Positions 1 through 4,508 of a DNA stretch of 7,704 nucleotides are shown piece after piece; within the stretch, counting starts at the first letter, position 1, and every line of letters starts with the position of its first letter. Source of the stretch: an uncultured Gammaproteobacteria bacterium (GTDB lineage: Bacteria; Patescibacteriota; Microgenomatia; Daviesbacterales; UBA10151); assembly GCA_964522265.1 (NCBI GenBank), contig CAZFVS010000014.1, forward strand, positions 7,584 to 15,287. The letters run 5' to 3'. Under the pieces are notes generated by a model, which was given only the letters and a program-made list of their open reading frames with translations, searched no databases and was not told the DNA's origin. The translations under genes and the position numbers were made by a program.

Positions 1-258
1 AGGACACAGATTTATTTGCCAGAAGATTTAAGAAGAGAGATAGACCGTGACCGTGCCCAAAGTGGGGAAAGCAGGGCTGAATATTTAAGAAAAGCTGCTG
101 CAGAACGTATTGTTAGGCGGAGAAAAAGCAAAGTTGATCTTAAAAAATTGGCAGAAGAATTAGGTCGGGGTGTCAAAAAAAGCGGTTGGGAGGGTATGGG
201 TGTGAAAGAAGTGGTTGCCTGGCAGAGACGCATCAGGAAGGACCGTAAAATTTTTTAA
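1..258 (+). CDS. vapB: Ribbon-helix-helix (CopG/Arc-type) antitoxin, VapB-like; 5' end probably upstream of the window
   Basis: The frame is open from nt 1 (RTQIYLPEDLRREIDRDRAQSGESRAEYLRKAAAERI). This is the typical RHH beta-strand, helix, helix N-terminus. The TTG at 16 used by the ORF track would truncate the beta-strand, so the true start is likely off-window. The stop TAA (256-258) overlaps the ATG of the downstream PIN gene by 1 nt (TAATG), a classic type II TA coupling. Confidence 0.75.
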   Translation, partial: RTQIYLPEDLRREIDRDRAQSGESRAEYLRKAAAERIVRRRKSKVDLKKLAEELGRGVKKSGWEGMGVKEVVAWQRRIRKDRKIF

Positions 259-763: not shown

Positions 764-1114
764 GTTCTTTTAAATATCTTCAGGTAGCTTGCGGCGACCA
801 GACCATTTTCAGTTAAGTGATTTGGTTGCTGCAAGAAACCCTTCTGCCGGATTGTCCGGTAGAAGAAAATGGTGATTCAGCTTGGAGGTTTAGGGTGGAT
901 GATGTTGCCCGTGAGCTAGAGGTTCTAGCTCAGTTGGAGATATTGATCTCCGAGGTTGAGGAGATGGTGTTAGGCATCCTCCGTGAGGAGGATGCCGACA
1001 GGTATCAGGGTTGCGCATACCACGAACCCTCTCGGGTTCGTGGTTGCTACTGGTGCGATCTGTACGTCCACTAGCCTTCAAAAGCCGGGGTGCTTAACCG
1101 CCCCCGGCTTTTTT
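764..1114 (+). ncRNA. Unclassified structured RNA, about 350 nt, from promoter to terminator
   Basis: This is a GC-rich island: hand counts give about 48-57% G+C per 60-nt line, against about 33% for a hand-counted vapC line. Both strands are open here (ORFs 817..1074+ and 890..1081-), as expected for non-coding GC-rich RNA. Hand-found helices: 788-802/821-835 (15 contiguous bp including 3 G-U) plus 804-807/816-819; 841-850/856-865 (10 bp, 1 G-U); 912-920/924-932; 934-941/946-953; 973-982/987-996 (10 bp, GUGA tetraloop); 1020-1029/1034-1043 (10 bp). A long-range closing helix, 882-890/1073-1081 plus 894-901/1065-1072 (17 bp, 4 G-U, 3-nt bulge), encloses a nested 998-1003/1058-1063. The G-U pairs would be C-A mismatches on the - strand, which favours a + strand transcript. 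Confidence 0.6.
1081..1114 (+). terminator. Rho-independent terminator
   Basis: A GC stem gccgggg (1084-1090) / ccccggc (1102-1108), extendable by A-T pairs, is followed by six T (1109-1114). Confidence 0.8.
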
Positions 1115-1155
1115 CATACAAATATAAGTGTAGTACAATACTTTACAGTCCTTTT

Positions 1156-2849: not shown

Positions 2850-4115
2850 ATGTTTTTGAAATCCCTAAAATTAAAAAATTTCAGGAATTACCATGTTTTA
2901 GATCACTCATTCAGCACCCCGATAACTATTTTGATAGGGGATAATGCCCAGGGGAAATCCAATTTTTTAGAAAGTATTTATTTTCTGGCAGCAGCAAAAT
3001 CCCCCAAAGCCGAAAGAGACGAGGAGATAATAAGGTATGGGGAGGATGTGGTGAGGGTAGAGGGGGTGGTGGAAAATTCAGAACAACTCGGAAAAACTCA
3101 GAGAATCAGCGATTCAAAAATTCAGATAAACCGGAATTCTGGTTTACAGAGTTCTTCTGAGTCATTCCGGACAAATCTGGAAATTACGATGCAGTCTGTT
3201 GATGGCCTGCCTGCCGGCAGGCAGAAAAAACTTAAGAAAAGAATTCAGGTTAACGGCATCCCAAGAAGAATCTCTGATTACAGCGAGAATTTGGCAGTTG
3301 TGGCGTTTGCTCCGGAAGATATCAATATGGTAACAGGTCCGCCGTCTCTTAGACGGGACCACATTAATCAGGTTATTGCACAAATTGACCGCCAGTATAA
3401 AAAGATATGGTCAAGCTATGAGAATATCATTGTCCGGAAAAATAAACTTTTAAAGATGATCAAAGAAGGAACTGCAAAAATTGGAGAATTAGATTTTTGG
3501 TGCAGCGAGCAGCTTAGGTTTGCAGAGGAGATAGTTTCTAAAAGGCAGGAGTTTTTTGAGTTTATCAGTGGTGCAGAAAAAAAATTTGGGGATTTCAAAT
3601 ATGAATACCAGCCCAGTATTTTGACCCCAGAAAGACTTATGGAATACCGACAAAAAGAGATTGACGCTGCTGTCTCGCTGATAGGTCCGCATCGGGATGA
3701 TTTTGCATTTTTGATAACAGATTCAGAAGAACTCGGAAATACTCAGAGTTCCAAGAAATCAGAAGATCAGATAAACCGGAATTCTGGTGTTTCTGATCAT
3801 CCGAGTCATTCCGAGTCATTCAGGAGAAAAGATTTGTCAAAATATGGCTCGAGAGGTGAACAACGAACAGCAGTGTTAGATTTAAAAATAGCAGAAGTCT
3901 CTTTTATGGAACAAAAAATGGGTTCAAGGCCGGTGCTGCTTCTGGATGATATCTTCTCAGAACTTGATTTGGAACACAAAAAACATGTGGTTGAGCTTGC
4001 CAAGCTGCAGCAAACGATCATTACAACAGTTGAGCTTGATAAATACCTTCAGAGCCAGTTTAAAGAAGCAGAGGTATTGGAGGTGAAAAAAGGGAAGATA
4101 AATATTAAGCAATAA
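2850..4115 (+). CDS. recF: DNA replication/repair protein RecF, carrying in-frame insertions
   Basis: The N-terminus LKLKNFRNY is present. So are the Walker A GDNAQGKSN (from 2937), FAPEDINMV, GPHRDD, the signature SRGEQRT and the Walker B LLLDDIFSELD. At 421 aa it is longer than the usual 360-375 aa. The excess maps to the repeat copies at 3078-3170 and 3723-3824 and to the palindrome at 3207-3224. Confidence 0.92.
   Translation: MFLKSLKLKNFRNYHVLDHSFSTPITILIGDNAQGKSNFLESIYFLAAAKSPKAERDEEIIRYGEDVVRVEGVVENSEQLGKTQRISDSKIQINRNSGLQSSSESFRTNLEITMQSVDGLPAGRQKKLKKRIQVNGIPRRISDYSENLAVVAFAPEDINMVTGPPSLRRDHINQVIAQIDRQYKKIWSSYENIIVRKNKLLKMIKEGTAKIGELDFWCSEQLRFAEEIVSKRQEFFEFISGAEKKFGDFKYEYQPSILTPERLMEYRQKEIDAAVSLIGPHRDDFAFLITDSEELGNTQSSKKSEDQINRNSGVSDHPSHSESFRRKDLSKYGSRGEQRTAVLDLKIAEVSFMEQKMGSRPVLLLDDIFSELDLEHKKHVVELAKLQQTIITTVELDKYLQSQFKEAEVLEVKKGKINIKQ
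3078..3170 (+). repeat. Palindromic MITE/RPE-like element, copy 1, in frame inside recF (codons 77-107)
   Basis: It is 93 nt, or 31 codons (SEQLGKTQRISDSKIQINRNSGLQSSSESFR). The left end tcagaacaactcggaaaaactcagag matches the left ends of the other copies. The right end gagttcttctgagtcattccgg is roughly the reverse complement of the left end (about 16 of 22). The central hairpin is aaaccgg-aatt-ctggttt. Boundaries are +/- 3 nt. Confidence 0.8.
3207..3224. repeat. Perfect 18-nt GC-rich palindrome ctgcctgcc|ggcaggcag occupying exactly six recF codons (LPAGRQ)
   Basis: All 9 base pairs were checked by hand. It begins on a codon boundary (3207 = 2850 + 357). It lies in a segment (SVDGLPAGRQ) that is extra relative to my recollection of Bacillus subtilis RecF. 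Confidence 0.85.
3723..3824 (+). repeat. Palindromic MITE/RPE-like element, copy 2, in frame inside recF (codons 292-325)
   Basis: It is 102 nt, or 34 codons (SEELGNTQSSKKSEDQINRNSGVSDHPSHSESFR). The first 26 nt match copy 1 at 24 of 26. A central 22-mer tcagataaaccggaattctggt is identical to copy 1. The right end carries a tandem 10-nt duplication ccgagtcatt x2 (3801-3820). It has the same orientation and codon phase as copy 1 (tca gaa ...) and sits just before the RecF signature motif. Confidence 0.8.
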
Positions 4116-4130
4116 TCTAGAAGCAATTTT

Positions 4131-4223
4131 TCAGAATAACTCAGAAAGACTCAGTAAATCAGATAGTCTGAATACCTGATAATCTGAAATACAGGCACAC
4201 AGAGTTATTCCGAGTCTTTCTGA
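4131..4223 (+). repeat. Palindromic MITE/RPE-like element, copy 3, intergenic between convergent genes
   Basis: It is 93 nt. The left end tcagaataactcagaaagactcag and the right end gagttattccgagtctttctga are homologous to the ends of copies 1 and 2; the interior has diverged. tcagaaagactc (4141-4152) is the perfect reverse complement of gagtctttctga (4212-4223). In the phase used inside recF it reads tca gaa TAA, a stop. A T-rich tract (atttgtttgtattt) follows, so it may also act as the recF terminator. Confidence 0.75.
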
Positions 4224-4235
4224 ATTTGTTTGTAT

Positions 4236-4508
4236 TTACTTTTTCCGTTGGAATCTGGCAGCCAGGCGGGAGAGTTGATAAGTGATAAGCATTGCAAACA
4301 CGGTGATCAGTATGGCATAAATAAACTTATAAAATATCCCTGATCCGGGAATTCTTGATTCAATAAACTGTTTTACAAACTCCTGGATTGCCTCATTCCA
4401 AGCCAGTGCTGCCACCAGCCCGAAGCCTGAAGTAGCCAAAGTCAGCATTTGAGTTATCAGTTCAACATGAAACCGTCTTTCCTGTCTAGTCTCTTTTTTC
4501 TTGGGCAT
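4236..4508 (-). CDS. Small membrane protein, DUF5654-like
   Basis: It is 90 aa with a basic N-terminus and two hydrophobic segments. The motif TSGFGLVAALAWNEAIQ resembles my recollection of DUF5654 family proteins. It is convergent with recF. Confidence 0.6.
   Translation of the reverse strand: MPKKKETRQERRFHVELITQMLTLATSGFGLVAALAWNEAIQEFVKQFIESRIPGSGIFYKFIYAILITVFAMLITYQLSRLAARFQRKK

Follow-up and report, generated by a model that had tools for sequence, protein, structure and literature searches.

The DNA examined here is a 7,704-nt stretch of contig CAZFVS010000014.1 (the window, meaning this whole stretch), a syntenic piece of a groundwater Candidatus Daviesbacteria genome (Candidate Phyla Radiation, CPR; Microgenomates). 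Its recF gene contains two in-frame copies of a palindromic DNA element, and a third copy lies between recF and the neighboring gene. We consider it likely that these copies belong to a short (~90–110 bp), non-autonomous family resembling transposable elements of the miniature inverted-repeat type (MITEs), which disperses in CPR bacteria (Microgenomates/Daviesbacteria) and whose insertions are filtered by selection. A repeat search returned the three copies as one direct-repeat family (3077–3167, 3722–3812, and 4130–4220). The host gene, the copies with their full extents, and the neighboring gene are as follows.

2850–4115, plus strand: recF coding sequence, 421 aa (open reading frame list, Pfam SMC_N), carrying copies A and B and a 21-nt mini-insert
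3077–3172, plus strand: copy A, palindromic element, in frame, RecF residues 77–107, SEQLGKTQRISDSKIQINRNSGLQSSSESFR; loop between strands 67–76 and 106–117
3722–3826, plus strand: copy B, palindromic element, in frame, RecF residues 292–325, SEELGNTQSSKKSEDQINRNSGVSDHPSHSESFR; loop between strand 284–289 and helix 329–332
4130–4225, no strand assigned: copy C, palindromic element, in the intergenic space where recF and the convergent DUF5654 gene face each other with their 3′ ends
4236–4508, minus strand: convergent DUF5654 gene (open reading frame list and domain search), bounding the insertion site of copy C

A preliminary description of the window, made from its letters, had held that two segments of recF are homologous, and the repeat search and pairwise comparison bore this out. 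The left 26 nt of copies A and B match at 24 positions, the 22-mer TCAGATAAACCGGAATTCTGGT is identical between them, and both finish with the common right end GAGTCATTC(C/A)GG. Both copies have lengths that are multiples of three, lie in the same orientation, and start with TCA GAA in the recF frame (codons 77–107 and 292–325), adding 31 and 34 aa, respectively, as had been read from the sequence before. Compared without gaps, copy B is 67% and copy C 73% identical to copy A, and a 9-nt internal insertion sets copy B apart from copy A in a MAFFT alignment. The reverse complement of copy C aligns about as well as its forward strand, which indicates that the element is palindromic. The motif GAANNACTCRGAANNACTCNG marks both ends of every copy, in inverted orientation, which makes six occurrences in the window compared to a chance expectation of 0.01; six occurrences were reached in none of 200 dinucleotide shuffles. 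A long, imperfect hairpin forms in every copy, whichever strand is folded (z −4.6 to −5.4). The terminal inverted repeats of ~10-nt subunits noted earlier were recovered at all six ends, which are located as follows. No Rfam family matched the element at E ≤ 1.

3081–3101, plus strand: left terminal repeat of copy A, built of two subunits in 10-nt phase, GAAcaACTCgGAAaaACTCaG
3147–3167, minus strand: right terminal repeat of copy A, same motif as the left, inverted
3726–3746, plus strand: left terminal repeat of copy B (motif count)
3801–3821, minus strand: right terminal repeat of copy B (motif count)
4134–4154, plus strand: left terminal repeat of copy C (motif count)
4200–4220, minus strand: right terminal repeat of copy C (motif count)

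The presence of the segments in other RecF proteins was investigated in an alignment of the 120 closest orthologues. Site 2, between FxF/L and RDLSK, spans 7 residues in 96 of the 120 orthologues compared to 42 in the window, and site 1, between EG and LEI, spans 6–12 residues in ~100 of the 120 compared to 37. The RecF of the window is correspondingly long, at 421 aa vs. mostly ~348–360 aa in its closest relatives (~350 aa being typical of Daviesbacteria). Copy A is shared only by the nearest relative, L001 (GCA_016186955.1; RecF 73% identical in amino acids), at identical junctions and with 93 of 96 nucleotides the same. At site 2, L001 carries an unrelated palindromic insert in place of copy B. 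Copy C is absent from L001, and recF and the DUF5654 gene abut or overlap in five relatives (L001, L011, L024, L025, and L026), which reveals an empty site for copy C. In the window, copy C is flanked by the stops of recF (4115) and the DUF5654 gene (4236) and contains stops in all six frames, so the third copy stands outside any gene, as first described. The alignment supports the view that the RecF segments are lineage-specific insertions and not an ancestral domain.

The host protein appears otherwise normal. It passes the NCBIfam equivalog model for RecF (247 bits vs. a cutoff of 172), with the match split over three stretches, and its Walker A (GDNAQGKS), signature (SRGEQR), and Walker B (LLLDD) motifs are uninterrupted, in agreement with the earlier claim. 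Copy B sits 8 residues before the signature. An AlphaFold2 model built on the 120-sequence alignment had a mean predicted local distance difference test score (pLDDT) of 89.7 and a predicted template modeling score of 0.87. Block means of pLDDT fell to 51–57 at residues ~78–105 and ~291–325 and were ≥90 elsewhere. The model core superposed on solved RecF structures with a root-mean-square deviation of 2.4–2.6 Å and a TM-score of 0.86–0.87 (normalized by target length). Both inserts are therefore predicted to be low-confidence surface loops compatible with an otherwise normal RecF fold, and the proposal that they fall in loops held in the model.

Family members were then found well beyond the window. 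A scan of 185,579 species-representative genomes for both terminal repeats 35–65 nt apart, under a strict pattern, returned at least 9 loci, 8 of them true family members. The hosts were metagenome-assembled genomes (MAGs) of Daviesbacteria, Microgenomates, and Patescibacteria, together with three MAGs labelled Gammaproteobacteria. A scan of metagenomes with a slightly looser pattern returned at least 12 loci, including 9 true members, three of which lie on one 26-kb contig. In total, at least ~19 independent loci of the family were detected in CPR genomes and metagenomes, about half of them intergenic (9–10 copies). Terminal inverted repeats at both ends are also present in 18 further copies. 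Copies are 88–111 bp long and encode a segment of 29–36 aa in one frame. An nhmmer profile built from 21 copies scored family members at E = 1e-13 to 1e-24 and detected no further degenerate copies over ~170 kb of fetched loci. A scan of viral contigs gave no family copies. The copies found in frame in genes of other genomes are listed below, with named host proteins identified by passing NCBIfam equivalog cutoffs.

L011, recF: RecF site 1, in frame, in a relative with 53% amino acid identity; residue offset differs from that of copy A
L007, valS: linker between the tRNA-synt_1 and Anticodon_1 domains, in frame; ValS 837 bits vs. cutoff 704
L005, radA: just past the RadA/Sms Walker A helix, in frame; 516 bits vs. 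cutoff 403, match in two pieces
L003, tsaD (orthologous copy in L006): TsaD loop, in frame; 381 bits vs. cutoff 296
L008 and L016: open reading frames (ORFs) that have no family name, 258 and 780 aa long, in frame

In-frame hosts thus include RecF (three insertions), ValS, RadA, TsaD, and two or three unnamed ORFs, all in a single element frame. Because its offset differs from that of copy A, the L011 recF copy is probably an independent insertion. Three of the element-bearing MAGs, L006 (CAYNFQ010000005.1), L002, and L008, are labelled "uncultured Gammaproteobacteria". The tsaD locus of L006 is 79% identical in DNA to that of L003, a Candidatus Microgenomates MAG, and the three contigs or bins are probably mislabelled or mis-binned CPR DNA.

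Some pattern and peptide matches were set aside. The match in L010 (6284–6401, a Rikenellaceae MAG) consists of ACTCAG(CCTT/AAAT) units arrayed in tandem and inverted, and those in L013 (4993–5092), L018 (1577–1677), and L020 (4509–4609) are palindromes with ACTCCGAACACTCCGAAACACTCCGA termini from one metagenome (JAEEGL...). All four share the ACTC.G core periodicity and score just 18–20 bits, or nothing, with the family profile. At the protein level, a padded alignment search with the insert peptides gave no matches, and an exhaustive phmmer search with the copy B peptide gave only two, short low-complexity peptides being poorly searchable in this way. One of these, a eukaryotic retrotransposon repeat protein (P0122), was judged spurious, and the other (P0121, 5,740 aa) shows no matched stretch.

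The preliminary description had raised the concern that the copies might amount to a local triplication. Because copies occur in valS, radA, tsaD, and the intergenic DNA of other CPR genomes, dispersal of the family at the nucleotide level is supported instead. The same observation bears on the idea that hairpin-promoted slippage or duplication within recF, with no mobile element involved, produced a local variable-loop phenomenon. The three copies do lie inside 1.15 kb, and the same two RecF loops hold many different insert sequences elsewhere, which suggests that these loops are intrinsically permissive and variable. We nevertheless regard a local origin as very improbable, since other genomes have members with both terminal repeats in unrelated genes and in intergenic DNA, no gene contains copy C, and copies A, B, and C, at 67–73% identity, are not recent duplicates of one another. 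Artefacts of metagenome assembly, such as repeat-induced chimeric joins, were also considered, given that the window comes from a metagenome-assembled contig of 15.3 kb and that assemblers can be misled by repeats. To this we attach next to no weight: copy A is present at identical junctions in the independent assembly GCA_016186955.1, the tsaD copy occurs in two independent assemblies, and the elements are below typical read length with frames intact on both sides.

The reading frame of the intragenic copies was uniform. In every one, the left end is read in the host frame as TCA-GAA and the right end as GAG-TNN-TTC. The resulting peptides follow the pattern SE.L.KTQ...PSHSESFR (generally ...PS.SESFR), with a SENSEKLR start where the first spacer is 1 nt shorter. 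The predicted insert peptides include NSGLQSSSESFR, and ISDSK and IQINR from copy A. They are strongly hydrophilic, as noted before, with a grand average of hydropathy (GRAVY) of −1.2 to −1.7 vs. −0.41 for the RecF core and with S/T/N/Q/D/E/K/R making up 69–77% of residues. No stops occur in the host frame of any intragenic copy, whereas the opposite orientation has 1–4 stops in every intragenic copy but that of L008, which is open both ways. In the remaining two forward frames, TCTGA and GATAA motifs give rise to TGA or TAA. Among intergenic copies, TGA is frequent at the terminal TTCTGA, as is TAA at GAATAACTC, and copy C and several more of them have stops in every one of the six frames. 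As one frame of six lacks stops, no phase-aware insertion mechanism is needed, and the common orientation and phase are best explained by survivorship, i.e., random insertions filtered by selection. The behavior likened in the preliminary description to that of Rickettsia palindromic elements (RPEs) thus stands as regards in-frame genic copies, intergenic copies, and a single phase; the common phase is accounted for by survivorship and not necessarily by how the element inserts.

The open host frame of every intragenic copy, seen beside intergenic copies closed in all frames, suggests that ribosomes read through the inserts. A rival view is removal of the segments before or after translation, as an intron-like RNA hairpin or an intein-like peptide, in which case they would be missing from mature RecF. 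CPR bacteria carry unusual insertions in their rRNA genes, and the elements form very stable RNA hairpins, both of which fit such removal. We give it very little credence, however. The intragenic copies keep frame and register, whereas copy C and several other intergenic ones are closed in six frames, a contrast that would be required only under read-through. Rfam contains no intron or ribozyme matching them at E ≤ 1, and segments of 31–34 aa are far below intein size and lack Cys/Ser...His-Asn splice motifs and intein blocks. The analogous RPE insert in gmk is described as translated (PMC2229807). An identity as intein or self-splicing intron was rejected for the same small size and hydrophilic composition, the same absence of intein blocks and of Rfam matches at E ≤ 1, and the preserved frame.

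An alignment of 21 copies with their flanks was used to compare conservation of the terminal motif with conservation of base pairing. Each end contains two 10-nt-phased copies of GAAnnACTCrG, inverted between the ends, and the interior consists of a variable periodic series of (C/T)C(A/G)GA and TC(T/C)G(A/G) cores every 8–11 nt. At variable positions, the arms pair in 75.2% of cells compared to 79.5% in shuffles, and changes on both sides were seen in three cells only. The fixed motif positions pair by construction, with 13 of 24 pairs invariant partly because the search pattern demanded them. Selection for RNA structure is unsupported by these data, as the variable arm positions show no covariation. 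Conservation of motif rather than pairing fits a protein-recognized terminal-inverted-repeat element better than a selected hairpin, and the alignment favors terminal inverted repeats with helically phased subunits whose motif would be recognized on duplex DNA. A simple scan did not call a terminator in copy C, for which a terminator role is a possibility only.

Copy A showed exceptional conservation. It matches the L001 orthologue at 93 of 96 nt, compared to 76% identity for recF outside it. Within copy A, all 32 third codon positions agree, vs. 202 of 348 in the remainder of the gene (Fisher P = 1e-7). The 60-nt flanks show 64–70% third-position identity, and the drop coincides with the element boundaries. 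Copy A is the most conserved 96-nt window in the 7.7-kb region syntenic with L001. In the tsaD pair (L003/L006), the element is 87% identical vs. 79% and 62% for its flanks. Our first reading, purifying selection, was qualified after two other patches at 96–97% identity were found in the same genome pair, at window positions 35–130 (antitoxin gene) and 2672–2767 (end of a small ORF). Given these patches, recent exchange or re-insertion of copy A between related populations is at least as likely as nucleotide-level constraint.

The two patches are sharp-edged (window 1–150 and 2660–2790 vs. L001 6232–6380 and ~9790–9920) in genomes otherwise ~73% identical. The first is the N-terminal half of the ribbon-helix-helix (RHH) antitoxin gene and the second is the 3′ end of the small ORF (2570–2758), whose upstream part is replaced by a 334-aa ORF in L001. 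This suggests mosaic recent exchange of toxin–antitoxin-type DNA between related populations, and both patches are plausibly mobile DNA.

The conservation of copy A is also an argument for holding that selection on nucleotides keeps the element in place, or copy A at the least, as a phased array of sites bound by a host protein or as a DNA or RNA hairpin modulating recF expression, with the peptide as a by-product. The identity of copy A and of its third positions, its rank among 96-nt windows, the elevated identity of the tsaD element, and the 10-nt helical phasing of the subunits all speak for such selection. We judge it unlikely all the same: most RecF orthologues have no insert at these sites, so RecF needs none, the arms lack covariation, and copies within the genome are alike at only 67–73%. 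The two other patches, in turn, make mosaic recent exchange an equally good account.

We return to a dispersing MITE-like family. Under this interpretation, a trans-acting DNA-binding enzyme, presumably a transposase encoded outside the window, would recognize the phased terminal subunits and move the element. Insertions in genes would survive only if they have the stop-free orientation and phase, add nucleotides in a net multiple of three, and fall within linkers or loops at the protein surface. Surviving inserts would be translated as disordered loop extensions, with the host fold and catalytic motifs preserved, and for RecF they are most likely either neutral or mildly deleterious. Other insertions would persist only in intergenic DNA, as in copy C, free to gather stops.

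Several observations weigh against this interpretation. The genome set scanned does not include the source genome, and copy number under the strict pattern was low (1–3 per genome or contig), unlike classical high-copy MITEs. Invariance of the terminal motif across the family is partly circular because the scans required the motif. No consistent target-site duplication was seen in the 21 aligned copies with flanks, the boundaries being fuzzy; several intergenic copies have TA just outside TTTTCAGAA, as far as such boundaries allow. No transposase partner or solo terminal repeats were found in the window or in the ~170 kb of loci, and the gap limit of the collection scans excluded terminal-repeat spacings of insertion sequence (IS) length. 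The lack of a transposase among the ORFs and domains of the window agrees with what had been described. Translation of the inserts, although probable, is deduced from frame preservation alone. Lastly, copy A is conserved beyond its flanks, where a passively decaying neutral insertion predicts otherwise.

Other palindromic inserts were also identified in the same protein and its relatives. A 21-nt mini-insert in the next RecF hairpin loop is missing from L001, and 98 of the 120 orthologues have the short form at this position. Two in-frame insertions of related palindromes, CTGTCTGCCGACAGGCAAG and CTGTCTGCCGGCAGGCAAG, occur in the tsaD gene of L006, and peptides of the PAGRQ/SAGRH type are present in further RecF orthologues (P0010 and P0013). 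The CTGCCGGCAG mini-palindrome probably represents a second family of intragenic palindromes, of much smaller size. Elsewhere in Daviesbacteria, the recF genes examined have hairpin-forming inserts of other kinds in the two loops that copies A and B occupy here.

3205–3225, plus strand: mini-insert (~LPAGRQK), 21 nt in frame, perfect 18-nt palindrome CTGCCTGCCGGCAGGCAG (3206–3223)
L001 10847–10933: site 2 insert, 87 nt, z −3.4
L026 1723–1854: site 1 insert, 132 nt, z −5.5
L026 2383–2430: site 2 insert, shorter copy of the L026 family
L024 522–638: RecF loop insert, hairpin-forming
L025 1244–1357: RecF loop insert, hairpin-forming

The L026 family (GTCATTCCCGAGA...GTCGGGAATCC) has one copy per site, repeating the two-site pattern of the window with a different element. 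The L001 insert at site 2 and those of several orthologues (peptides ...SLANA...NDN, SAQDDS, and RGNDS) share one further family. Judging from these sequences, the two RecF loops appear to be recurrent landing pads for inserts. A bolder and rather doubtful possibility is that unrelated short palindromic families insert, replace one another, and get exchanged in the same loops of CPR core proteins, some copies being kept near-invariant at synonymous positions through homing- or gene-conversion-like spread or through an embedded nucleotide function. RecF sites 1 and 2 would be examples, with the CAGAA family of the window and the L026 family each at both sites and a third family, that of L001, at site 2. 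If true, multi-family loop insertion would be a significant, undescribed driver of protein-length and sequence divergence in CPR bacteria, beyond tolerated junk.

The genes of the window are, in order, the RHH antitoxin, a PIN toxin, a major facilitator superfamily (MFS) transporter, the small ORF, recF, the convergent DUF5654 gene, a DedA/VTT-domain gene, a Fic gene, and prkA. A relatively G+C-rich intergenic stretch of ~330 nt (780–1115, plus strand), located between the PIN and MFS genes, folds exceptionally well, with a minimum free energy of −175 kcal/mol (z = −10.3). A near-consensus promoter, TTGACT/TATAAT (~728–756), stands before it, and it ends in a strong intrinsic terminator (~1084–1113). 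Conservation in the syntenic L001 covers the promoter, the initial two hairpins, and the terminator, and the middle has diverged. The stretch had no Rfam match at E ≤ 1 and no tRNA or tmRNA, and the 85-aa ORF overlapping it had no Pfam match. It is a candidate for an undescribed structured noncoding RNA.

The closest known counterparts are the RPEs (Ogata et al. 2000, 2002). According to PMC10969869 and PMC2229807, these are palindromic repeats of ~100–150 bp that have terminal inverted repeats and are predicted to form a long stem-loop, located between genes or in frame in housekeeping genes of a small-genome bacterium; about half are intragenic, and RPE-1 has 44 copies in R. conorii. The element described here is likewise a palindrome with terminal inverted repeats and a stem-loop, with in-frame and intergenic copies (about half genic), an open frame with a conserved peptide, a host fold and function expected to be kept, and no known transposase. 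It differs in its host, CPR/Patescibacteria rather than Alphaproteobacteria, the two families being set apart by host and description and not by a comparison with RPE sequences. Further differences are a shorter length (88–111 bp), termini of two 10-nt-phased GAAnnACTCrG subunits, only 1–3 copies per genome or contig under strict criteria, and an orthologous copy more conserved than its flanks.

Among bacterial MITEs, the 107-bp form of Correia/NEMIS, ERIC/IRU, and Coxiella QMITE1 have open frames and are in some cases intragenic (PMC2229807, PMC10969869, PMC5896051). They resemble the present family in being small and non-autonomous, with terminal inverted repeats and stem-loop transcripts, open-frame forms being fused to host ORFs and stop-bearing forms lying between genes. 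They usually show TA termini and target-site duplications, some of them matching an IS (RUP with IS630-Spn1), and for the present family no consistent duplication was seen in the 21 aligned copies; they are also mostly intergenic and high-copy, unlike the present family. As in MITEs, the copies are <300 bp, have terminal inverted repeats and no transposase coding capacity, and are dispersed with filled and empty sites. Repetitive extragenic palindromes (REPs) and bacterial interspersed mosaic elements (BIMEs), which are mobilized by REP-associated tyrosine transposases (RAYT; PMC3733652), are palindromic, dispersed, and hairpin-forming as well; mobilization in trans is established for REPs and would be only an inference here. 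REPs are 20–40 bp, G+C-rich, and nearly all extragenic, with GTAG/CGTC heads (PMC3733652). An identity with REP/BIME was rejected, as the element is ~95 bp, A+T-rich, and frequently intragenic, with two-subunit terminal inverted repeats and no GTAG/CGTC head. The coding palindromes of Nematomorpha mitochondria (PMC6649704) are also inverted repeats within essential protein-coding genes that are translated, as is likely here, but they are long, perfect organelle repeats with both arms coding and have no dispersed family, terminal motifs, or intergenic copies. A full-text literature search, covering part of the journals, found no account of such elements in CPR bacteria. The element is best regarded as a new family within the known class of MITE-like palindromic elements able to live in frame in genes.

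To our knowledge, selfish palindromic DNA that colonizes essential genes in frame has so far counted as near-unique to Rickettsia. The same behavior in an unrelated, genome-reduced CPR lineage suggests that it arises repeatedly where genomes are small and intergenic space is scarce. The family offers a concrete source for many unexplained insertions in CPR core proteins and a warning to annotators that such segments are nucleotide repeats and not protein domains. That different families repeatedly occupy two RecF loops, furthermore, provides a natural map of insertion tolerance in RecF.

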